This document shows positions 24,166-44,490 of a stretch of 64,000 nucleotides of DNA, one piece after another. The position numbers and the translations under genes were made by a program. Position 1 is the stretch's first letter. The number at the start of each line of letters is the position of its first letter. Source of the DNA: Cladosporium halotolerans (Eukaryota); contig NW_027191467.1 of assembly GCF_011745625.1 (NCBI RefSeq), forward strand, positions 248,001 to 312,000, read 5' to 3'. Below the pieces are notes generated by a model. That model searched no databases and was not told where the DNA came from. It worked only from the letters and a program-made list of their open reading frames with translations.

Positions 24166-25518
24166 CTAGCCCTTGATGCCCTCGCTATCGCTGCCACTAG
24201 CCAGGGTGTCGCCCTCCCAGCTCTCGTCGCCCGTGACCGGGCTCCTGAAACCCGTGGACGGACTCCTCGACGCCGGGCTGAAACTGGAGCTCGAGCCCAG
24301 CGTCCACTCGTCGCTGTCGCCCGCGAGCGCGGGGTAGGCCTCCTCGTCGAGGTCGCCGGCGAAGCCGTACGCGAAGGGCTGGCGGGCCTCGCCGCGCTCG
24401 ACGTACTCGTACTCCCAGCGGAAGGTCTTGCCGGGCTGCATGCGCGGGAGGAAGGCGGACTTGGCGACGAAGTAGACGGTGGCGCTGATGATGCCGCCCG
24501 CGACGAGGTCGACGGCGTAGTGGTGGTTGAGGTACATGGTGGCCCACCAGAGCCAGAGGGTGTAGAGGACGAAGAGCGGGCGCAGGCGCGGGAAGGCGTG
24601 CGCCATGAAGAGGGCTTCGATGGTGGCGCTGCCGGAGTGCAGGGAGGGGAAGGCGCCGAAGACGACGGGCGAGGCGGTGAAGGTCGAGGTGTACAGGTCG
24701 ATGTTGAAGAGCTTGTCGATCGCCGCGAGGCCGGCGGGGGACCCGGGCATGCTGTAGTCGGCGGGCGCGAGGCCGTACATGTTCTCGTACCAGGGCGGCG
24801 CGCAGGGGAAGCAGAGCTGGATGCTGACGCCGATGATGTTCATCCAGCCGAAGGCGCGGGCGAAGGTGGGAGTGGTGCCGGGCGGGCCGAAGATGAACAG
24901 GAGACCGGAGCAGACGAAGGGAGCGCCGAAGTGCGTGATTCCGTAGGGCAGCCAGGCCAGCACGTCGAAGAAGGTGCTCTTGTGCGCGGAGAGGATGTTG
25001 CTCAGGTTGGCGCCGTAGAGGATGTTCTCGAGCGCGGGAAGAACACGGACCCAGATGGGCGGGCGGTATTCACCGGAGATAAACTGACAGGCGTAGAAAA
25101 AGATCAGCCATCCCGCTATAGGCAGGAAAGGCAGGAAGAATTGCCGGGTCAGAGGTATCAGAAGGCTGAACATCAACAATGTGGCCACGAGGGTCTTGAC
25201 GAAAGGCCCAGGGCTTTGGATGACGCAGAGCGAGAAGATGCCGAGGATGGCAAGGAATATGTACTGTGCATCCCAGGGACTCCACTGGTGTCTCTTCAAG
25301 CTCCTCAGGGTATCGGCCGGGTTCAATGAGGTCTCCAGGCGGGTGATGGAGGTGGTGAGGTGGTGCTGGTTTCCCGACCGTAACCTCGTCCTCGTGGAGC
25401 GGAACTTGCGGCGCAGTCTGTGAGGGATGATCGCCGGGAGGGTGAGCGGGATCTTGCTGGTGGTGAAGAAGCGCTGGGTGGAGTCGTCGCCGCCGTTGAG
25501 GAAGTAGGAGGCTGCCAT
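24166..25518 (-). CDS. AUR1: Inositol phosphorylceramide synthase catalytic subunit (aureobasidin A target)
   Basis: RPPIWVRVLPALENILYGANLS, PCAPPWYENMYGL, FGAFPSLHSG, WATMYLNHHYAVDL. Intronless, 450 aa. Confidence 0.97.
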   Translation of the reverse strand: MAASYFLNGGDDSTQRFFTTSKIPLTLPAIIPHRLRRKFRSTRTRLRSGNQHHLTTSITRLETSLNPADTLRSLKRHQWSPWDAQYIFLAILGIFSLCVIQSPGPFVKTLVATLLMFSLLIPLTRQFFLPFLPIAGWLIFFYACQFISGEYRPPIWVRVLPALENILYGANLSNILSAHKSTFFDVLAWLPYGITHFGAPFVCSGLLFIFGPPGTTPTFARAFGWMNIIGVSIQLCFPCAPPWYENMYGLAPADYSMPGSPAGLAAIDKLFNIDLYTSTFTASPVVFGAFPSLHSGSATIEALFMAHAFPRLRPLFVLYTLWLWWATMYLNHHYAVDLVAGGIISATVYFVAKSAFLPRMQPGKTFRWEYEYVERGEARQPFAYGFAGDLDEEAYPALAGDSDEWTLGSSSSFSPASRSPSTGFRSPVTGDESWEGDTLASGSDSEGIKG

Positions 25519-26414
25519 GGTCGCGTGAGGCAGTCGGCGGAGGCGGAGAAGAGGGCGGCGGTGATGGTGGTGGTGGTGAGGCGGGTCGGCGCCCTTTGTG
25601 TCGCAGTACAGGCAGCAGAGGGCGGTCGAGCAGGCGGTGCCGGGCTATGATGCTGGGTGTGGAGAGTGAGGCGAAGTGCTGGGCGGCAGTCGGCGCGGCG
25701 ACGGGGTAGCACAAGGCAGGGCACAGCTCAGCAAGCACAGCAGGGCGGAGGGAGGATGCAATGCAGGGCGGCGGTTGGTAAGTGTGCTGCAGGCGGAGGA
25801 GGAGGAGTACTGTACAGTAGGAAGGCTGGCGAGGTGAGACAGGAAACGGAAACGGAGACGGAAACGGGATGGAGTCGCGCGCGCAGGGCCGTGACAGCAG
25901 CGAGCAGTGAGCAGCAGGCGGGCAGAGGCGTTTCTCGGCGGCAGCCTTCGCGCGCTGGGCTGGGCTGGCGGGAAGCACTGGCGCAATCTTAAAATTCGAG
26001 CAATCTCCAGGCGCACGCGAGCGGCAGCCAGGGCGGGCAAGCGCCGACGTCAGGCGCAGGTGCAGGGGGAGAGTGCCGTGGGAGGGCGTTAATGCGTGAC
26101 GATAATGCCGGGGTGGGCGATGATATTGTGTTGTGGTAAGGTATCTTGTTGTTGTTATTGCTGCCGTAGAGGAGGGAGGGCTGCGTGCACGGCGGTCGGA
26201 GTGTGCACTGTGACGGGCAAGGGCAGGCAGTTGGCGGATGCGACTCGTGCGCGCCGGATGCAGTGGCCCAGCAGTCGTTGTGCTAACTGACCAGGTGTGT
26301 AGTAGTGTACTTGCTGTTGGAGCTACTATACGGTTAGCGAGCCAACGCCCGCCAGGCTCCAGCATCGCGGAAGCGCCGGGAGGGCCAGCACGGCTGCGGT
26401 CGGCATGTGGTGCG

Positions 26415-28221: not shown

Positions 28222-29605
28222 CTGAAAGATGAAAAATATATAGCACGTTAGATAAATAGCTGAATTTATTTTCTATCACTTTTCCAGGTTTTTATTCTTC
28301 CCGTAGCAGTCAAATAAAGCGTTAAAACCCGCTCGCCGGTTACTGCTCGCTTACCGGGTGGGATTCTACCCTCCACCCTCGAGACTATCTCAGAATCGCA
28401 GATCGCAGGGCAAGCCCGCTAATAAACCAGACGGAAAGGTCTGAAGGAAATTTCTGGAGCTCGTGTGCGGCCCCTTGCATGGCATGGATGCTGTATTTTA
28501 CACATGCATGTAGGTGAGACATTCGGTCGGTGAGCGAGCGTGGGCGCAACGTGGGCGTCGGGGCGTGCTGTCGCGTGCTCTGCTGCTGACACTTGTGTAC
28601 GGAGCTACGCTGTGCTGCGCTGCGGGTACGTTGCTGTGTACTGTACACGTGGGGGTTTTGCGCATCGTGTGGGATCATGGTTGTCTGATCTTCCCCTGTT
28701 GTTAACCGGTCGGGGCGCCGTGGATGTGGACTGACGACTAGGGGACGTTCCTTGAGGAAATATGTTGAGTTTCCTATACGTCTAGCTGAGGACGCCTTTT
28801 TCTCGTCTTCGCCTCCATTGCGCTCCATCTCGCCCCACTCTCAGATCTACCCGTGGGCTCGTGGAAGACCCATACGGCGTATGCTGGACTAAATATTCCT
28901 AGCTGCGAACAGAACGTTTACATACTCGCTCGTGACGCCACTGCGTCCCTTTCCAAGTACAGAAACATCTGGTTTCTGGTGTCTGATTCTCCATCGATGG
29001 TGTCTTTGGATGGGATGCGATATCATCTGAAAGAGGTAGGAAAAGCTGGCTGGTGGATTTTAGTTGGCTGGAATTTTGGTGGCTCTTGCTCGATCGATCA
29101 CTCGAAACCATCAAGATTCGTCTGATTCGATATTTTACTCGGTCAGTCCAAGAGAACTAAAGCTATGGACAAGAGAATTGATAAGCCAAATCAGCTTGTC
29201 AAATTAGCGGGACCTGATCCCCCGTCCTTTGAGGTATGACGGAACGAGTCTGGCGACCACCTTCCACCTCGAATCAATGTTAGAAAATCCCTAGCATATC
29301 GCGAATAAATCTCAGCAATTTATCGAATCGCGTATCTCCTCGTGCAAGCCATCCCCACTTAAGAACTCACAGCCAAACAAACTCGCACCGCCGAAAGACT
29401 CATTGCGGAAACAACGGATCGCTAATCATTCAATCGAATGATTGGTTGACCTTTCAATCGTTTACTAAATTAATTGACTACTAGCAGCATGACTGAAAGC
29501 ATTGGTCAATCGATCGAATTGATGAATGAATGACTGGTTAATGAATCAACAGACCAAACGATCAACCAACCGACAACACCTCCTCTCTCACCCTACCATC
29601 CCCCT

Positions 29606-30749
29606 CTAACCAAGCTTCAACGTATTCCCCGCCTTCCCCACAACCGCCGCCTTCACATTCCCACTCCCCAGCAACGAATACTTATACGGCACGCTCGTCA
29701 ACGTCCCCCTGGGCGCCTCGTCCGTCGCCCCACCCAGCACCAAATCCCTCGTCACCGCGTACCCGACCTCCTTCGAATCAATCGACAGCACCGCCCTCTT
29801 GACCCCCGTAAAAACGGTACTCTCCACCAGCGCCTGCGCCCCCATCCGCGTGTTCACCGCCGTCTCCCCGCCCTCGAAGTACGAGTTGAACACGTGCGCC
29901 GTCCCGAAGCGCAGCAGCGGCATGCGGCTGTTGATGTTGCGGAAGTGGTTGTTGGCGTACGTGATGTGCAGCCTGCCCCGGTCCTCGCCGCCGTTGTTGT
30001 CGCTGTGCCCGACGAGCGAGGCCTTGAAGTGGTCGTGGAACAGCGTGTTGCTGACCGTCAGCCAGTCGCTGCCGTGGCTGAAGTCCGCGAGCCCGTCGTA
30101 GTAGTCTTTGCCCGAGGTGAGGTCCGACGACAGGTCGCAGTGGTCGATCCAGACGTTGGAGGACTCTTGCACGCCGATGGCGTCGCCGCCGGGGTCGCCC
30201 GTGCGCACTTTGGAGATCGCCAGGTTGCGGATGATCACGTTGTTGGCGGCGCGGAGGAAGAGCCCGAAGCCGGTGATGGTCGAGGTGGAGTCTAGGCCCA
30301 GGATGGATTTGTTGGACCCGACGCGGATTTTCTCGGTGCCGGTTATCTTTCCCTTGATGTAGACGGTTACCGGGGCCGTTTCGTCTTTGACGGCTGCGGC
30401 GAGGTCGGCGTAGGTCGAGACGGTGACGACTTTGCCGCCGGCGCCGCCGGTCGTGCCGCCGTTCTGTCAGGGGAGGTTAGTTGGATAGTTGTTGTGGTTT
30501 GATCGGGGTCGAAAGGGGTGGTTCGATTGCATGTGTTGCTGTGCCAGAAGTTTCGATCGTTGATCGATCTTCTAATAGGAAAGAGACATACTAGAAGTTG
30601 TTAGCGGATTCAGTCAGTGAATCGTGAGCCTAGACTTCCATACCCATACTAGCATAGCCAACAGGGCTAGCATTCTGCCTTGCAACCAGAGGACTTGCAA
30701 GAGCAGTCAAAGGCGACAATGCCGCCACGGCAAGGACGGAAAGTTTCAT
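29606..30749 (-). CDS. Secreted pectate lyase, polysaccharide lyase family 1 (about 320 aa)
   Basis: Signal peptide MKLSVLAVAALSPLTALA; VGYASM|NGGTTGGAGG; NVIIRNL, NVWIDHCDL, YYDGLAD, SRMPLLRFG. Exons 30749-30645 and 30463-29606. Confidence 0.95.
30464..30644 (-). other. [D1,2] spliceosomal twin intron (stwintron)
   Basis: G | GTATGG..GCTAAC..TAG (internal, 30643-30591) | TATGT..CTAAC..CAG (external). Only nested removal restores the reading frame. Confidence 0.85.
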
Positions 30750-32376
30750 GATGTCGAGAGTGGTCCACAAATGATCGATGAATTGGTCTGGGTTGAGCTT
30801 GGACGGACAGATCGATGAAAGACCTCAAGGTCTTTTATGTCTTCGATCACCAAGATACTCTAAGATCACAACATGCTCCACGAGCAAATACTTCCGTCCC
30901 CAGTCCCTCAATTTCCTCCACTCACATCCCTCCAACACTGAGAAGCATCACTCTTTGATTGCGTAAACACGCTCAGACTTCACCAAACCCGCCCTCGTGC
31001 TACCACCACACCGCGCCAGAAGACCACGGAGGCAAGTCCAAGGCGTGTGAAGTTATACCCTACTGTACATGAGACCGACTCCCACGAATCAGCTCTCAAC
31101 CCCTTGAGTCCACCTTCCACCAACCGGAGCGCCGGGTATCGATGCCTCTTTCTGCAAACGGTCCGGGGACGCTCCTACCGCGCTACAGCGAGGGGCTTGG
31201 GCTTTTGCGGAGAAATATGCGCCTGAAACGCTATACTGCTGCTGTGGCGTCGGCCTTGAGCAATGTACTAGGGATCAGGCGTCGATCATTCTGGGGCCGC
31301 CAATCGGAGCGCTGGGGCTGGGGGCTTGGATGTTTGAGAGAGGCGAGATAGTTAGGGTCTAGAGACGAAAGGAAGACCTGCGCATTGTTGTCGGATTGGT
31401 TTTATCATGAGTTGAGATTGAAAGGGTTGAGGGGATGTGGTCGTGGAAGGTATCGGGGGAAAAAGCGGTTGTGGACATTTTGGACTTGGAGCCTTCTTTG
31501 GGACGAAGACAAGCCGTTCCAATTTGGGCATGGCGACTCCAAACTCTTCGGAGTCTCTTCCGCGAAGTTTCCTATATGGAGCCAAACACTTCTTCCAGGT
31601 CTTGAATCCTGATTTAAGCTTTGATGGATGATGTAATGAATCAGGACCTTATTATCTTTGTTTTATATATTACAGAGAGCTGGTCACTTCCATTAATTCA
31701 ACGACAAGTTGTAATCAGCAAGCCTGGTCTAGCGGTTATGATTTCTGTCTAACAACAGTTGCAACATGCACGCTGATGGCAGCACAGAAGGTTCCCGGTT
31801 CGATTCCGGGGGTTTGTAACAGATGTTCTTCATTACATTTTTGTCTTTTTTGTCTACTGTACCACCATTGACGAGATGGCAGGTTGTCACGGTCATGTTT
31901 TTGGGGCCAGGTTGTGAACGAATGTGGGTGCAGGTGGTGACGCTGGCCGGATTGGTCGGATTCGTTTCAATAACACGAGATACTCGACACCGATGATCGC
32001 TGCACTGGGTTTCTGCAGCTAGGTCCAAACTTGGGTGATCTTCAGGAGAAGTATCCTGATGCTGCTCTTCATACACTCCGTTCAAAATCTCGGACGAACG
32101 AAGATTGTAGAAACCCAGACTTTGTATTGACATCCCAAACCATTACATCCCCATAAAAAACCCCATGCGTTCGTTAAATATGAAATAGAAATACGAAAGA
32201 AACGACCGTGATCAAAAACATCCCGAAAACCCCAAGAACTCCAACAGCGACGTCCTCGACTCCAACTTTTCCCCTCCTGCATACCCCACCCCCTCCCCAA
32301 GACCATACACCAACCCCCCACAGTCGCCCGCGCGATACGGTTCCGCCTCTTCGGCCAGCACCGACGGCGGAGACCG

Positions 32377-33831: not shown

Positions 33832-35080
33832 GATGGCGGTCGTTGTATGTAGTGTTAAATGCGTTGTGGTGATTGAAGAGGAGATGGGATACCGCACTGT
33901 ATCCGAATGTCGGTAGGCAGGAAGTCAGATAAACAGGCGGGCCGCAGGTTGGTATATATAAGGACAACAGCAGAGAGGGGAAACTATCAGGAGCGCGAGA
34001 CACACCCATGCAGCAACACAGCTGCCCTGAGCTGAGGCTTGGAGCGTTGCCTGACCGTCCGCAATGGCTTTCTACTTCTAAGCCTGCATGCTCCGCAGGA
34101 CATACGATGACTGCAGCGACCAGGTTGTCGAACGGTGAGAGAACTTTCGAGCTTTCACATGCTTCAAATTGCTGATAACAAGTGCGACAAGTGGTACAGG
34201 ATCAATATCACAACGCTCAGGGCGGGTGGCGGTGCGGATACCAGCAGTCTCAGCCCCATTCGCTTGGCGAAAGGCATCTCAGCTGCCTCGAGCTGAAGGT
34301 CGACAGGCGCCGACGGCGGCCTCAGCCCTCTGTCCGAGGTTCCAGAATACTTCGCTCTGGCCGATGCGATGTGCATGCAGGTCAGCCGGCCGGCAAGTAC
34401 CACGGTCGAGCGAGACGGCAAAGGCGCATTCGATACGGTGACATTATTGTGTACAGCGTCGGCACATGCGCGTGAATAATGAGCTGACGGCGCCACTCAA
34501 GCCGGTGAGCGCCAGTAAGCGAGACTCATCGCAGCTTGACCGGCAGCCACTTGGCCGGTGCCTTCAGACAAGACAAGAACCCGCGTAGAGGCCAGTCGAG
34601 AGAGCTTCTATAGTTAGAGGATGCGTCCGCCGGCACGTGCTATCAGCCGTGTGCACGAATGGCCTGCATCGGCGGAGGAGCCGTGAGTTCGAGTGATGGG
34701 AGTGAGTCGCGGCCGCCCGTCTGTCTTGGTTGCTGCAAATTGGATGCATGTGTGTTGTTGGAGGCGCAGAGAAGCGGTCTGTGTTTGCAGCAGGCGGAAG
34801 GTCAGGGCCTAGCCCACTCCCTCCACTTTGCCTTCTATCACGTGTCTAGCAACAACAATAATGTCGAAATGGAAGAGCCAAAACGGAGAAGACAAAGGCA
34901 AAGGCAGACAGCCCGGCGGGCGGGCCAAGCTAAATCCCCCGCGCCGTACCTTGCAGGCGGCGCGCGCTCCCTTGAATCCACACGTTGCATCACTCCCGCC
35001 GCGCTAAGAAGAGGCCAGCAGTACAATCGCGCGGCCACGAAGGGGGGCAAACGAGACCCCTCCGGCCATTTCGCGGATTC

Positions 35081-37179
35081 ATGGGCGACACTTTCCCCTC
35101 TCACTTCTCTTCTGTCCCGCCGACCCTCGCCGCCGCCTCATCGCAGCCCGTTCTGCCTCTGCACGAAGCCAGGGACCCAGGCACCGATAACACCGGCCTC
35201 GAGCTTGCAGATCTCTCCGATCAGAGCAGACGGAACCGACGCTCCTTAATAATCGATACCGATCTTTCGCGACACGAGCATTATTACGACGAGCATTTGG
35301 ACAGCGCAGCGAGCCAGACACACCATACACACATGCCGAGCAAAAAATCTAAATCCCGGTCGCCGAATCCACTGGGCCGGGTGCAACACAACGCGAACGG
35401 ATCGACATCATCGGCATCGCCCACGTCGAACGGCGATATGAACGGGTCCTTTAGAGAACGCGGAAAGCCCGCGGCGTCCCTGGAGATTCCGGACAGTGCC
35501 GTGCAAACGGCGCATCTGATGGGCAGAGAGTCTTTCTCCTTGGACCACGTGCCCCCTCCGACACCCGGCAAGGAGGAGAGCAGCAAGGGCTTCTTCGATC
35601 TACCTCGACAGGACAGGAGGAATTTCTTGTTGCTGGTGTTGCTGTATTTCTTGCAGGGCATTCCTATGGGTTTGGCAGCTGGCAGCGTGCCATTCCTGCT
35701 CAAGAGCTACATGAGTTATGGGCAGATCGGCGTGTACAGTTTGGCATCGTACCCATACAGCTTGAAGCTGTTGTGGAGTCCGATCGTGGATGCAGTTTGG
35801 AGTCCTAAGGTTGGCAGGAGAAAGAGTTGGATTCTTCCCATACAAATGCTCAGCGGTTTCAGCATGATTTGGCTGGGCTCGGGAGCCCAGAAGATGATGG
35901 AGGAGGCTGGCGCGAACGGCGGAGCTGGTGTTTGGGGATTCACAGGCTGGTGGTTTGCTCTGGTTTTCTTGTGCGCAACGCAGGATATTGCCGTTGACGG
36001 CTGGGCGCTTACACTTCTGTCGCCGTCTAACCTCTCCTACGCTTCGACCGCACAAACGGTCGGTCTTACTGCTGGCCAATTCTTGAGCTACACTGTCTTC
36101 CTCGCGTTGAGCAGCCCTGATTTCGCCAACAAGTACTTCCGCAGCCAGCCGCTGGATGTCGGCCTCTTCACATTGGATTCTTATCTCGTATTCTGGGGCT
36201 GGGCCTACCTAGCAGTCACCCTTGGCCTCGCTCTGCTCAAGCGGGAAGAGCGCACCAAGGAGAAGGACAGCATTCTTGATGTCTACAAGGTCATGGGTGG
36301 CATCATGAAGCTGCGCAACGTCCAGATCTTCATCGTCATCCACCTGATCGCTAAGATCGGTTTCCAGGCCAATGACGCCGTCACGAACCTCAAACTTCTG
36401 GACAAGGGATTCAGCCAGGAAGACCTGGCCCTCACTGTTTTGATCGACTTTCCTTTCGAGATTATGCTGGGTTACTACGCCGGCATGTGGAGCGAAAAGT
36501 ACCAACCCATCAAGGTCTGGTGCTGGGCTTTCATCGGCAGACTGGCTGCCGCGGTCTTTGCACAGCTGGTCGTCATGGCCTTCCCGGCAGGCGGCACCAC
36601 GACTTCTTACCTGCTCACTGTCATCGTCGAGCATGTCTTCAGCACTTTCATGAGCACCGTCATGTTCGTCGCCATCAGCGCGTTCCACGCCAAGATTGCC
36701 GATCCGGCCATCGGCGGCACCTACATGACCCTCCTTGCTACGTAAGTCTTGCTTCTACACTCCTATCAGAACCCTGAATACTTACACATTCCACAGCGTC
36801 AGCAACCTCGGCGGCACTTTCCCTCGTTTCTTCATCCTCAAGTTCGTCGACGCCTTCACCGTCGCGACATGCCACCCTCCCACCAGTCCCCCGAAGCCAG
36901 ACACCCTCAAGGGCGACCTCATCACGCAGTCCTTCAGCTGCGTACTCGAAGCCGAGAAGCACCGCTGCATCGATGGCGGCGGTTCCTGCGACATTTCGCA
37001 AGACGGTAAGCATTGTGTGGACTCTTGAAGAGAGGATGAATAGCTAACGGAAACCAGGCTACTACATCGTCAACGTACTGTGTGTTCTCGTGGGCGCCGT
37101 GACGTTCTGGATGTTCATCCGCCCACAGGCGCTGAAGTTGCAGCAATTACCCATGCGCGCTTGGCGCATTTCGGGATGA
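35081..37179 (+). CDS. Acetyl-CoA transporter (SLC33A1/AT-1 family, MFS)
   Basis: LLVLLYFLQGIPMGL, PYSLKLLWSPIVDA, ATQDIAVDGWALTLL, DPAIGGTYMTLLAT|VSNLGGTFP. Introns at about 36742-36796 and 37006-37058. Start codon uncertain. Confidence 0.93.
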
Positions 37180-38531: not shown

Positions 38532-39458
38532 GGGTGGATGGGATGTTTCGATTGTCTGGTCTTTGTATCTAGAGGTTGCTCCTACATCATCATTAGGCGC
38601 TGTATCGATTTGCCGGGAGCGATCGTCGAAGATCTGCCTTCTAGCCACATCTACGCGTTGTTGCTTCGTTGTCGATAGGATCAGGAGTGCTGCGTGGGTG
38701 CCGTCCGCCATGTGCGAAGTTCCAACCGCGTCACCATCGATCATCAACAGGCCGACGTTGTATTGCCAACGCCATGTCTCGGTATGTGTATGAGCTTTAG
38801 ATGACGGATGCCGTGTCGAAGCACGGGCAAGGATGTGAAGATCAAGGTTCATCTGTCAATCATCTGGCGACCGTTGTACCGCTGACGGCGAGGCGTGCGC
38901 ACGGCCATGCGACGCAGGGCAACGGTGACCTTGGCAGCCGACACAAGGCATCACCCGTGACCGGCCTCAGTCCTGCACGTCAACACGCCCACTACCACCG
39001 CAGCGAGCAGGCACGGCACTTCTATCGCCAACACGCATCCTCATCCACCGCACAGCGCATCTTCGCCCGCGCTGCTGCTCCGTGCCACCCCCTGTCGGCT
39101 CGTCTGCTCTCGCAGTATCCACCTCCTCACGCTACTGCCCCGAACCGTGCGCGCATCCGCCTTCTCTAGGCCAACGCCCGTTACTTGTTTCGGTTGGCAT
39201 CCTCGTTCACGCTCGCCGAGTAGGTGATTACCACTCGCCCGGATCTCGGCATTTCCGCTCCAAACCAACAACACCACCACCATTGACGGTTTTCTGTTCG
39301 TCCCCGGCGCCTGGGGCAATGGCCGCCTGACCCGTCCCTCAATCTCCTCCCGCTCCCTGTCGTCCACGCCGGCTCCGCCAGGCGAGCCACGCGACTCTGC
39401 GCCGCTGCCCAACAAGCTGGTGAAGTCTGCCTCCTCGAGCGAACTCGGGCAGAAAACC

Positions 39459-41873
39459 ATGGCAGCCGTCACCATGCCGCATTCACACATGTCGCCTTCG
39501 CACGAGGAGCACACTATGGACACCCGGACGCCTTCTCCTGGACCCAGGCCGGATAGCAAAAACACGGACACGTCGAGCTACCAGCCCGACCTGAGCCAGG
39601 AGGTTTCCATGCTGAGCACGAAGTTGATAAACGCCATAAACTATCAGACGAACCTGGACGACTCACTGCAACATACAAGGCATGAGCTTGAAGCAGCCAA
39701 TCGGGAGAATGCGCGGTTACGAGCAGAGAAGAAGTCACTGGATGACATGGTCGCAAATGGATTCCTTGTCAGGAAGACTCTCATGGATAGAACTGTGAAT
39801 TCGTTGAAGCTTGAACTGGCAAAAGAGAAGTCTGCTCGAGAAGAGGCGGAAAAGGCACGGAAGCAGACTGATGCTGAGCTCGAGAACTTGACCACAGCAC
39901 TTTTCGAGGAGGCCAATACAATGGTAGCAGCTGCGCGGAAGGACACTGAGGCGGTGGAGAAGCGAAACTCGCAATTGAAGAGCCAGATCAACGACACGGA
40001 GATGCTGCTTGCTTCACAGCAGGAGCAACTTCAGGACCTCAAACTGACTATGGGCCGCATGTCTGAGCGAGGCGAGAATGATACCGCAGGCAGGGAGAGC
40101 ATTCCTTCTACACCCATTGGATCTTCGGCCGCCATGTTTGATGCCATGCAACTTTCGCCAAACGCAACGAATATCGCAGATATTCCTCCCGAGCACCCGC
40201 TTTATTTCTCGCATTTGCTTACACCGGTTCTCCGAAACGACATTCCAGCATACATCGACTTCCAGGATCTGCTGCAGTGTGCACGGAAAGCAATTAGCCA
40301 TTCACGAGGCGCAAGCTCCGGTAACAACTCATCCGGCGGACTCAGCTCATCAAGCCAATCGAACCTTGCATCGAATTCGTCTCCTTCGCTGCCCGGTGCC
40401 TTCTCCTTCTCGACGAGTTCAAGTCCCCAATCATCAAGCTTCGCGACCACCGCACCACCCCTGAAGGACAGCAAATTCTACAAGCGATCCCTAGTGGAAG
40501 ACATCGAACCAACTCTACGACTCGACCTCGCCCCTGGCCTCAGCTTCCTCTCCCGACGAACGGTCCTCTCATCACTCCTGCAAGGCTCCATGGTCGTCGA
40601 GCCTTTCCTGCCCCAAACGAAATTCTACGGCCCCATCTTTGCCTGCGCCCTCTGCGGCGAAAGCCGCAAGAACGAGCCGTACGTGCGCAAACACCGCTTT
40701 AGGACCTCGGAGGAAGAAAGCGCGCAGCGCTATCCGCTTTGCGATTACTGCTTGAGCCGCACGCGCGCGGCCGGCGACTTCGTCGGTTTCCTGAGGATGG
40801 TCCGCGATGGGCACTGGCGAGCTGAGACCGAGGAGGAGCAGAAAGGCGCCTGGGAGGAGGCTGTTAGACTACGGGAGCGGATGTTCTGGGCGAGGCAGGG
40901 TGGCGGTGTGATTCCTAGTCTGGTCAAGCAGGGCACGCCTTCTACGGCGAACCCGAAGAGCGCCAGGCAGAGCCTCGAGAGCATTCCTGAGCAGCAGAGT
41001 CCGGCGAAGAGGGCTTCGCAGGCTGTTCAGGTCGCTCAGGAGGATGGCGAGCAAACAGAGTTGCGAGAAGTGGAGGAGAAAGCCGAGGTGCAGGAAACAG
41101 TTGAGGGCAAGCCGGCACCTGACGAGAAGCTGATGGATGTTTTCAAGACGCATCGGCGATCCATGACTTTGAGCAGCATTGCGCCGGAGCCGACTCCTGA
41201 ACCGACGACAGTCGATGAAGTACCCGTGGTTTCTGAGCCACAGGATGTTGCGTCTGAGCTGAAGATTGACCTCAACCCTGAGCCAAAGGTCGAGGAGCCC
41301 GCAGCTGAAGAGGCTACAGTTATTGCCATTGAGCCTCAAGAGCTGCAGAATGAGGTGTCGGAAGCTAAAGAGCCTGAGGTCCCTGTACCTGCGCTGGAAG
41401 ACCTGCAGCCTGAGATCGCAGCAGTTGAGCAACCTTCCGTCGTCGCTCCGGAACCCAAGGACACCCAGGCGCAGGAAGTGGCAACCGAATCCTCCGTCGT
41501 AGCAGCTGAGCCAGTAGTCGAACCAACCGCAGCACCGAAGACCGACGATGCGGTGCCCGAGACACCCCTGCCTGTCATTTCAACTGAGCAAGTCGTCACA
41601 TCGCCAGAACCCCCGGTCGAAACTCCTGTTGAGCCAACAACATCCGCAGAGGAAGAGGCGTCTGCCGTCGACGACGCGACACCCGCTGAAGCCCCGGCGC
41701 CTTCGACCTCTCCCCTGTCGCCCACTCCTTCGACAGAAACAGCATCAACACTCCAAGCGCCCGCCCAGCCCACACAGCGAAGAGGCTCATCCGTCCTCGC
41801 CCGCGTACGAGCCATGGAAGCGAACGCAACATCGCCCACCGAAGAGAAGAAGCCGCCTGGAAGCTTCGACTGA
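39459..41873 (+). CDS. SEC2: Rab (Sec4) guanine-nucleotide exchange factor Sec2
   Basis: LSTKLINAINYQTNLDDSL, ELENLTTALFEEANTMVAAAR, EDIEPTLRLDLAPGLSFLSRR, CALCGE, LRERMFWAR. Long acidic Pro/Glu tail. Confidence 0.93.
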   Translation: MAAVTMPHSHMSPSHEEHTMDTRTPSPGPRPDSKNTDTSSYQPDLSQEVSMLSTKLINAINYQTNLDDSLQHTRHELEAANRENARLRAEKKSLDDMVANGFLVRKTLMDRTVNSLKLELAKEKSAREEAEKARKQTDAELENLTTALFEEANTMVAAARKDTEAVEKRNSQLKSQINDTEMLLASQQEQLQDLKLTMGRMSERGENDTAGRESIPSTPIGSSAAMFDAMQLSPNATNIADIPPEHPLYFSHLLTPVLRNDIPAYIDFQDLLQCARKAISHSRGASSGNNSSGGLSSSSQSNLASNSSPSLPGAFSFSTSSSPQSSSFATTAPPLKDSKFYKRSLVEDIEPTLRLDLAPGLSFLSRRTVLSSLLQGSMVVEPFLPQTKFYGPIFACALCGESRKNEPYVRKHRFRTSEEESAQRYPLCDYCLSRTRAAGDFVGFLRMVRDGHWRAETEEEQKGAWEEAVRLRERMFWARQGGGVIPSLVKQGTPSTANPKSARQSLESIPEQQSPAKRASQAVQVAQEDGEQTELREVEEKAEVQETVEGKPAPDEKLMDVFKTHRRSMTLSSIAPEPTPEPTTVDEVPVVSEPQDVASELKIDLNPEPKVEEPAAEEATVIAIEPQELQNEVSEAKEPEVPVPALEDLQPEIAAVEQPSVVAPEPKDTQAQEVATESSVVAAEPVVEPTAAPKTDDAVPETPLPVISTEQVVTSPEPPVETPVEPTTSAEEEASAVDDATPAEAPAPSTSPLSPTPSTETASTLQAPAQPTQRRGSSVLARVRAMEANATSPTEEKKPPGSFD

Positions 41874-42691
41874 TTTCGTTCTCTATGCGCCGCATCGCAC
41901 CTTCCATTCAATTTCAAACGCTCATGGGTAAACGGGTTGTGTGTAAGAAGCCCCGCATCGCATGGCATTTCTACACACATACAGTACGGGAAACACGTGA
42001 ATAATGTATTACTAGTAGCGAACGGCTTCTCGGGTTGGGAGAAAAGTTCTAGCGGCGGGGTTGTACAAGCTCTTTTTTTTTTGTTAAAGTGCATATACCA
42101 TTTCATGGCATGGAACGTTTCTTTCGCGCTTACACTTGATGCTCTTTTCCTTTTCAACGTCGTGCATCTGTCTCCGCCGGGCTCTGGCTAATTGACCACA
42201 CTTGCTCGTATAGTGCAGCTGGAAAAGATTGACCCTAGACGCAAACCCCGCGCCGCCGAGGCCATTGGTGCAGATCTCGCGCTTCGCTTGGATGTCTCGA
42301 GCTCCACATAGCCTCATGTTCATAACGAAGACTTTGATCTATGCGCTTTGACGACTACCTGTCAACGCAGAGAATATGTCGCGACTCAGGGGTCTGTTAA
42401 CGCGAACGCGTCTTATTCAGTGCAGCAGTTTGTCTTCCAAACAGAGGTCGATCGATAATGAGCGTCACGCGTGTTGGCTCTGTATATGCACGTATGTTGG
42501 AGTGCCAAGCAGCTGAACCTAAAAGACGTTTTGCCTAAAGGCAACCACTCATCCGTAAACAATGACTGCGGAGGCCGAGGTTGAAAAATGACGACAGATA
42601 GACCGGCTCTGTTGATATAAATTGTCGAGTGCGGTCAGGCGGCAAGTCAACTGTTAGCCAAAGGGATCGTTGCACAAAAGTACTAACGATC

Positions 42692-44490
42692 ATGTTGTGG
42701 CATAGTTCGATTCTTCCACTTTTTGCGGCCGCCAATGCAGTGCTCGCAGCCCCTCCCAAGTATGGCGGCGGTGATCACCATCACGACAAACTTGTTGAAT
42801 ATACGAACCCTATGATCCCAGGCTACAGACCGGATCCGAGCTGTATTGCGGTCGAAGGCTTCTTTTACTGCATCTCGTCCACCTTCAACAGCTTCCCTGG
42901 CCTTCCCATCTACGCGAGCAGAGATTTACAAAACTGGCGGCACGTCAGCAATGTCATCCACAGCGAGGAGCAAGTGCCCGAGTACAGCCAGATCGCCGGA
43001 ATGCAGGAGGGCATCTACGCACCAACCCTCCGCCACCATGACGGCACCTTCTACGTGATCGTGACCTTCATGGGCGCAGCCGACAGCCCATTCCACATGA
43101 TCTTCAACTCCACGGACCCCCTCGACCCCTCCTCCTGGGGTACCCCCGTCCGCTTCATCAACACAGACATCGGATCCTTCGACCCGGACCTCTTCTGGGA
43201 CGACGATGGCCAGGCGTACGTGACCGCGCACGTCTTCGACATCGTCGGCAACAACATCTACCCCATCGACGTGACGACCGGCGAGTACGGGCCCAACACC
43301 AACCTCTGGAACGGCACCGGCGGCGTCTGGCCCGAGGGCCCGCACATGTACCGCAAGGACGACTACTACTACCTCGTGCTGGCAGAGGGTGGCACCAGCT
43401 TCGACCACATGGTTACCATCGCGCGCTCGAAGGAGCTCCTGGGCCCGTACGAGGCGTACGAGAACAACCCCATCCAGACCAACGCGAATACCTCGCAGTA
43501 CTTCCAGGCCGTCGGACATGCCGATTTCTTCCAGGACTTCGAAGGCAACTGGTGGGGCATCGCGCTGTCGATCAGGCAGGGCCCGCCGGGCTACACGGGC
43601 TCCTACCCCATGGGCCGTGAGACCGTCCTCTACCCTGTGACATGGCCCGAGAACGGCTGGCCGGAGTGCGAGCCTGTGCGTGGACGCATGCGAGGCCCTC
43701 TGCCGCGGAAATCGCGCAAGGTGCCCGGCGATGGCCCCTGGGTTGAGGAAGGCGACGACTATAAATTTAAAGGCGACTCTCTCCCGCTGCACTTCACGCA
43801 CTTCAGGTTCCCGCCCGAGGACATGTACACCATCGCCGACGGTGGCCTGACGGTCAATCCATCGAAGTACAACCTCACTGGCGACGAGACCTTCGAGCCG
43901 TCTGATCGCTTGTCATTTGTGGGCCGCAGGCAGACGGACACGCTCTTCACTTACTACGTCGACGTGGATTTTAGCCCTGAGGCCGAGGGAGAGGAAGCTG
44001 GCGTTACCATTTTCGCGAATCAGTGGCAGCACTCTGATCTCGGACTAGTGATGCTCGATGGATCTTTGAAAGCGCGTCTGCGTACTACTTCCTTTGGGTC
44101 TGATAACACCACGACTGACACGGCTGGTTCGGAAACCATCGTCGACGTCCCTAAGAAATTGATTGGAAAGACGATTAGGTTGCAAGTCCAAGCCGCGAGC
44201 GATACGGAATACGACTTGTACATGGGCGCTGCGCGCAAAAATTCCAAGCTGGAGCACGTGGGTACTGTGCCTGGTGCGGTGACGAGTGGTAGCAATGCGC
44301 AGTTCACAGGTGAGATGCCCTACTCTTTCGAGCCCGAAGATGTTATAAGCTGACCGAGATCGTAGGAACTTTCCTGGGCATCTTCGTGACTGCGAACGGC
44401 GGCGAAGGAAGCACCCCAGCGACCTTCAAGCGGTGGGTGTACAAAGGTCAAGGACAGAAGATTGACTTCGACGAGACGGTGTATAGCTGA
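42692..44490 (+). CDS. Secreted glycoside hydrolase family 43 (beta-xylosidase/arabinofuranosidase) with C-terminal beta-sandwich
   Basis: Signal peptide; NPMIPGYRPDPSC, GIYAPTLRHHDG, FDPDLFWDDDG, PEGPHMYRKD, VGHADFFQD, MGRETVL. Intron 44310-44365. Confidence 0.95.

Follow-up and report, generated by a model that had tools for sequence, protein, structure and literature searches.

The window, a 64,000-nt stretch of the Cladosporium halotolerans genome, carries on its minus strand a gene for a PL1 pectate lyase, which runs from ATG 30749 to the stop at 29606 and is interrupted by an intervening sequence of 181 nt (30644-30464, minus strand) with the ends GG..AG. The downstream part of the gene, exon 2, matched Pfam PF00544 with 142.1 bits (cut-off 24, E 2.5e-41) and had 2685 homologues at E <= 0.001, the best of which were named pectate lyase. 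It opens with AAC GGC GGC ACG ACC GGC GGC and keeps its frame uninterrupted to the stop, and removal of 30644-30464 gives GYAS-M-NGGTTGG within a protein of 320 aa. The peptide of exon 1 resembles a signal peptide with the conserved PVGYAS motif behind it. The parts of the gene, with the intervening sequence divided according to the reading developed below, and the neighbouring long frames are as follows.

30645 to 30749, minus strand: coding part of exon 1, 35 codons (MKLSVLAVAALSPLTALASPLVARQNASPVGYASM), with the ATG at 30749-30747 and the end GCT AGT ATG
30644, minus strand: first base of the putative twin intron and G1 of the split donor of its outer intron; taken from the sequence, with no indel in contigs of the public runs X1, X4 and X19
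30591 to 30643, minus strand: putative inner intron, 53 nt, donor GTATGG at 30643-30638 and acceptor TAG at 30593-30591
30464 to 30590, minus strand: remainder of the putative outer intron, 127 nt, TATGT at 30590-30586 and acceptor CAG at 30466-30464
29606 to 30463, minus strand: exon 2, 285 codons and the stop, NGGTTGGAGG...NTLKLG, with the PL1 domain
24166 to 25644, minus strand: neighbouring long frame, PAP2 superfamily
34976 to 36745, plus strand: neighbouring long frame, acetyl-CoA transporter family
39228 to 41873, plus strand: neighbouring long frame, Sec2p
42602 to 44353, plus strand: neighbouring long frame, GH43 with a C-terminal domain

Among these neighbouring long frames there was no CAZyme cluster around the lyase, and the context was that of an ordinary fungal chromosome. 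The donor hexamer stands twice in tandem (GTATGG GTATGG, 30638-30649, minus strand) across the boundary between exon 1 and the intervening sequence; this tandem could reflect the way in which the extra G and the donor originated.

The two evident donors, GTATGG at 30649 and at 30643, are both in phase 1, whereas the CAG acceptor at 30464 requires phase 0, a conflict which the earlier note had described and which we reproduced. When all GT/GC..AG pairs between 30720 and 30430 were considered as single introns, eight kept the frame and none of them had a credible donor. Seven used weak donors (GCTCTT, GCAAGT, GTTGCA, GCAAGG, GCTAGC, GTTGGC and GCTAGT) and cut the conserved N-terminus, and the eighth, with GTCTAG at 30635, would add GME before NGG (GYASMGME|NGG). 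An alignment of nine full-length homologues (319-321 aa) read P[VI]GYAS[LQ]NGG[TK]..., in which S and N are separated by a single residue, in agreement with the in-frame product M-N-G-G-T-T-G-G and the pattern GYAS-x-NGGTTGG that the earlier note had expected. Micro-exon and other single-intron models were rejected on their weak donors, on the conserved residues that they lose or gain and on the splice junction reported below. The 181-nt block itself has GG..AG ends, and a nested route was the only one with canonical U2 signals. The alternative [A2,3] route, which the earlier note had considered closed, is indeed closed by sequence logic, since the element is followed by an A (30463) where that route needs a G.

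We compared the element with the class of [D1,2] spliceosomal twin introns (stwintrons), using as search formula model A of section 2.1 of PMC9024468. As given there, the formula takes an inner donor G|GTNNGN from a list of 24 donors on which GTATGG and GTACGG both stand, an inner DYTRAY 4-20 nt before HAG and an inner intron of at least 42 nt (PMC9024468). Both strands of the window yielded one match, at 30644 on the minus strand, and 299 kb of related loci yielded matches only in six loci described below (class B), each at its predicted start, with one extra overlapping start in L005. In the window, the 5' hybrid motif consists of G30644 followed by GTATGG (30643-30638), a donor that deviates from the GURWGY consensus at position 6, and the branch element GCTAAC (30605-30600, branch A at 30601) is followed by 6 nt and then TAG, which gives an inner intron of 53 nt. 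The 3' hybrid motif is TAG|TATGT; the remainder of the outer intron, which starts TATGTC, has the branch element ACTAAC (30481-30476, branch A at 30477), followed by 9 nt and then the CAG at 30464. On removal of the inner intron, G30644 and the remaining 127 nt form a 128-nt outer intron with the donor GTATGT, and the frame of the conserved protein is restored by removal of the whole element only. The positions and counts of the earlier note (35 and 285 codons, an inner intron of 53 nt and an outer one of 128 nt) could all be derived again from the sequence, and its joining of G to TATGT into a GTATGT donor agreed with both the sequence and model A.

A looser regular expression for the same arrangement matched once on the two strands of the window, whereas 100 first-order Markov simulations gave 0.3 matches on average, so the [D1,2] motif alone is not improbable; what goes beyond chance is that the single match is located exactly where the reading frame needs one. 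The class is already well described, with 117 [D1,2] stwintrons reported in one Hypoxylon genome (PMC9024468) and 288 sequence-similar ones across 14 Xylariales in a paper that puts nearly all stwintrons in the [D1,2] class (PMC12403724); with hundreds known, the lyase case is a further example. The whole 181-nt element folded at -32 kcal/mol (z -2.08), and 5 of 200 shuffles folded equally well. No long terminal stem like that of the Xylariales sister stwintrons appeared in this 181-nt fold, in which only the inner intron's own ends were predicted to pair (UGGAAGU with ACUUCUA). A blastn search with the 181 nt for sister copies in the window and 80 related loci (363,156 bases) returned only the element itself.

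Contigs from four coded public runs (X1, X2, X4 and X19; assembled Logan contigs) were placed on positions 29500-31000. Record 10 of X2, a 699-nt contig with a depth of 17.5, matched 30788-30645 without a difference (144 nt) and 30463-29909 with 11 differences in 555 nt of exon 2. It joins 30645 to 30463 and skips exactly 181 nt (30464-30644), with the minus-strand ends GG..AG; the joint is ambiguous by one base because a G stands on both sides. The depth of X2 was zero over 30469-30621, which is consistent with RNA but no proof of it, and the limits of the contig and the absent intron fit a transcript, the RNA label of the run being a guess. The mature junction from 30645 to 30463, named in the earlier note as a check, was thus present in an RNA-like contig of a related strain, about 98% identical to the C. 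halotolerans sequence. We take the intron DNA of that strain to be the same as that of the window, although a plain intron there is possible in principle.

Two further contigs, X1 record 7 (30365-31000) and X4 record 16 (30244-30749), ran unspliced through the element with 0 indels. Their substitutions within the 181 nt (four in X1 and three in X4) spared G30644, the branch elements, TAG|TATGT and CAG, and the inner donor, changed in X1 from GTATGG to GTACGG, was still on the published list. The X19 contig (depth 34) was identical throughout and kept G30644; as X19 probably represents the source reads of the assembly, it shows only that an independent assembly keeps the G. G30644 is therefore genuine and not the assembly slip that the earlier note had named as a way to refute its reading. 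Among the exon 2 differences between strains that were listed, 26 of 28 were synonymous in the frame of the stwintron model, a sign of purifying selection on exon 2 in that frame; 46 more strain differences fall outside the listing.

Joints skipping only 53 nt or only 180 nt were not listed among the contigs of the four runs; contigs drop rare forms, so neither the missing intermediate nor the missing missplice counts as evidence. A 40-aa in-frame stretch (30645-30764), used to look for database proteins in which this N-terminus leads into exon 2, had no match at E <= 0.01, which is weak evidence either way. X1 also held a contig of a more diverged relative (record 6, on 30365-30466 and 30642-30770), which differs at 14 of 129 exon 1 positions. 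In it, 170 other letters replace window positions 30467-30641 while the alignment extends through ATGGGT and CAG, which may mean that a stwintron unrelated in sequence occupies the same position in that relative.

The public annotation presents the gene differently. The NCBI model (P0002), named hypothetical protein of Cladosporium halotolerans, has 295 aa, is 100% identical to the downstream lyase frame and starts MLALLAMLVW|NGGTTGG, the first exon being:

30644 to 30673, minus strand: first exon of the NCBI model (MLALLAMLVW), from ATG 30673 in another frame; placed from P0002 and the translation

Since MLALLAMLVW is encoded by 30673-30644 in this other frame, the NCBI model uses the downstream ATG and a single 180-nt intron (30643-30464), much as the earlier note had predicted that gene predictors would mis-model the gene. 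P0002 lacks the hydrophobic N-terminus (a putative signal peptide) and the PVGYAS motif, both common to full-length homologues, and on this comparison we judged it to be a mis-model. According to PMC12403724, excision of the 180-nt type is an occasional missplicing event, after which one G of the intron stays behind and the frame is shifted. The frame entered by such a one-G missplice (29778-30476, minus strand) is open for about 229-232 codons and Arg-rich, a GC-rich artefact, so a misspliced mRNA would encode a long aberrant protein with no early stop.

Taken together, we consider it highly probable that the only intervening sequence of this gene for a secreted PL1 pectate lyase is a [D1,2] stwintron that is excised in two steps. 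Under intron definition, the GTATGG donor at 30643 would pair with the nearest GCTAAC and with the AG that comes next (TAG, 30591), and loss of the 53-nt inner intron would join G30644 to TATGT to form a consensus GTATGT donor. This donor would then be used with ACTAAC and the CAG at 30464, so that the 128-nt outer intron would leave and ATG would be joined to AAC in frame, giving 320 aa. Splicing of the inner donor directly to the distal acceptor would leave one G and shift the frame, and it is this form that the public annotation adopts. For the [D1,2] class, excision in two steps, intermediates that can be detected and the one-G missplice have been described, as has intron definition for Ascomycota (PMC12403724); from this class behaviour and from intron definition we infer the order of the two reactions.

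Three other accounts of the locus were weighed against two-step excision. The gene might be mis-spliced or decaying, with only the 180-nt intron 30643-30464 in use and with an intron lacking the extra G in the X2 strain, so that the gene would yield either a frameshifted protein or, from ATG 30673, the 295 aa of the annotation. The NCBI model P0002 is built in just this way, low-frequency one-step missplicing is on record (PMC12403724), and the X2 junction stems from a related strain and was seen in a transcript-like contig only. We nevertheless hold this account to be unlikely, given that the 295-aa model has neither the signal peptide nor the PVGYAS common to full-length homologues, that the X2 transcript contig carries both start codons, with ATG 30749 ahead of ATG 30673, that the G is kept without indel in two other strains, that the exon 2 differences listed are 26 synonymous against 2 non-synonymous, and that the same device is needed in six orthologous loci.

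The mature junction alone is silent on the route, and a single non-canonical event might remove the 181 nt as GG..AG (or, one base shifted, as GG..CA) with no nested intermediate. Against this, both nested introns have complete sets of canonical signals at the correct spacings, the TAG|TATGT junction is intact in X1 and X4, and the class B orthologues retain a CAG|TACGT hybrid motif despite their diverged intron sequence. To our knowledge, GG donors form no recognised class of U2 introns, and we regard such an event as very improbable. If G30644, which does lie within a short homopolymer inside the tandem GTATGG GTATGG, were an assembly or sequencing error in the GGG run, the real intron would be a plain phase-0 one (ATG|GTATGG...CAG); with the contig of the probable source run identical and no indel across the site in the X1 and X4 contigs, which come from two independent studies, we give this account almost no credence. 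Two-step excision of a [D1,2] stwintron is the reading retained below.

A metagenome scan gave 80 loci, and the N-terminal region was examined in the 21 closest. In the orthologue comparison proposed in the earlier note, the same device, as G|GT..AG|TACGT, recurred in six loci, 12 nt downstream; other loci were uninterrupted or had a plain intron, displaced downstream by 1 nt.

Class A, nine loci (L001, L004, L011, L012, L015, L022, L058, L059 and L079): uninterrupted at the site
Class B, six loci (L002, L003, L005, L006, L007 and L076): [D1,2] stwintron 12 nt downstream, at L002:227-385, L003:2373-2512, L005:581-724, L006:1083-1239, L007:337-508 and L076:1646-1790
Class C, five loci (L008, L009, L010, L023 and L057): plain phase-1 intron 1 nt downstream, at L008:2407-2465, L009:2407-2465, L010:993-1049, L023:1764-1823 and L057:849-907
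L078: unclassed, 5' end absent

The class B proteins are 77-81% identical to that of the window gene. Their elements have the form AAY GGA GGA ACY G|GTAWGK...GCTAAC...CAG|TACGTC...YAG|ACY GGC GGY, with an inner intron of 52-53 nt, an outer remainder of 87-119 nt and spliced models of 319 aa, and the device is placed after the four codons of NGGT, whereas that of the window stands before NGGT. P0012, a database protein from an uninterrupted contig of 1222 nt, agreed with the spliced models of L007 and L006 at 314 and 313 of 319 residues, respectively, which suggests exact removal of the class B element as well. The outer intron at this position varies in length by a 15-nt tandem unit (GAAGCAAATTGTCTT-like), which L007 has three times and L006 twice. 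In class C, the protein is 62-71% identical and the plain intron measures 57-60 nt (ATG A|GTACGS...CAG|AC GGN); its start coincides with the start of the window's inner intron, 1 nt downstream of the stwintron boundary.

With interior-shuffle controls, comparison of the window element with the stwintrons at +12 and the plain introns at +1 gave z values of 0.5-2.9 for the inner intron and no higher than 1.9 for the outer part, and the class C intron was only weakly similar to the window's inner intron (z up to 2.7). On these values, the case for common descent of the window stwintron with the introns of class B or class C was unconvincing beyond the splice signals that they share. A maximum-likelihood tree was built from 23 rows, without L009 (the same as L008) and L076 (cut short). 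L010, L012, L015, L023, L057, L058 and L079 were also left out because their frames break after about 173 aa; these breaks, at about 173-179 aa, point to a second intron, which is absent from the window gene with its uninterrupted exon 2. The window gene paired with P0003 (support 96/94), and the class B loci formed a clade (100/99) that was sister to a clade of the intronless L001, L004 and L011 (98/96). Within this orthologue group of Cladosporium-like fungi, the two stwintron positions thus belong to different clades; independent gains, relocation or an old element with losses could each account for them. As a tentative explanation, to which we assign a rather low probability, [D1,2] stwintrons might be actively gained or relocated in Dothideomycetes, or the whole stwintron might have shifted by four codons between the flanking, similar (N/T)GG(T/A) coding repeats.

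In the recursive (ratchet-point) splicing of long animal introns, the first step regenerates a donor and the intron leaves in two steps, as proposed here for the lyase element. There, however, the upstream exon is joined to the regenerated donor and the introns measure tens of kilobases, whereas the lyase gene has a short, complete intron lodged inside the donor of one of 128 nt. The closest counterparts are the [D1,2] stwintrons of Hypoxylaceae and Xylariaceae, in which an inner U2 intron likewise sits between G1 and U2 of the outer donor (PMC9024468, PMC12403724). The accounts of these stwintrons share with our case the five-motif architecture, the need for exact removal to keep the frame, the one-G missplice and intron sizes whose published ranges include those of the lyase. 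The lyase element differs in that its host, Cladosporium, is a Dothideomycete outside Xylariales, and in that it has no similar sister copy in 363 kb and no long terminal symmetry (z -2.08); intermediates are on record there, whereas the case here comes from the sequence and the mature junction. For the Xylariales [D1,2] stwintrons, active gain and propagation have been proposed.

The mixture of states among orthologues also has precedents. In the DHA1 antiporter series of Pezizomycotina, the DNA for a conserved peptide contains a [D1,2] stwintron in some orthologues, a canonical intron shifted by 1 nt in others and further states in the rest (PMC5587772). The 1-nt shift in that series runs through the alternative [A2,3] route, which needs a G after the element (PMC5587772); in the window and in the loci with the stwintron at +12 this route is closed, as the next exon base is A, and the lyase's canonical intron at a distance of 1 nt (class C) belongs to a more distant clade. 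The [D1,2] stwintron of lipS, which according to PMC5639578 (summarised in PMC12403724) formed from an existing canonical intron, is comparable in that its position in other taxa is either occupied by a plain intron or intronless, with repeated losses (PMC5639578). In lipS, however, the plain intron lies at the stwintron position itself, whereas the nearest one of the lyase is offset by 1 nt and falls at the start of the inner intron, not of the outer. Introner-like elements are likewise recent intron gains in the same fungal class, Dothideomycetes, and are longer than regular introns (PMC3609843, PMC4457414); as reported in these papers, they are single introns in hundreds of similar copies, whereas the lyase element is single in 363 kb. 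Our literature searches found no paper joining 'stwintron' with 'pectate', and for 'stwintron' with 'Cladosporium' only a general review.

The lyase gene extends validated-looking [D1,2] stwintrons to Cladosporium, a genus of the Dothideomycetes. In all likelihood the true product of the gene is a secreted pectate lyase of 320 aa, which corrects the public gene model, and counts of secretomes or CAZymes drawn from the annotation would misjudge this gene and others with the same device. A move of a stwintron by four codons, if true, would be a new kind of intron shift. The four states found at this site (stwintron at 0, stwintron at +12, plain intron at +1 and none) form a compact natural series suited to testing the origin, movement and loss of nested introns.
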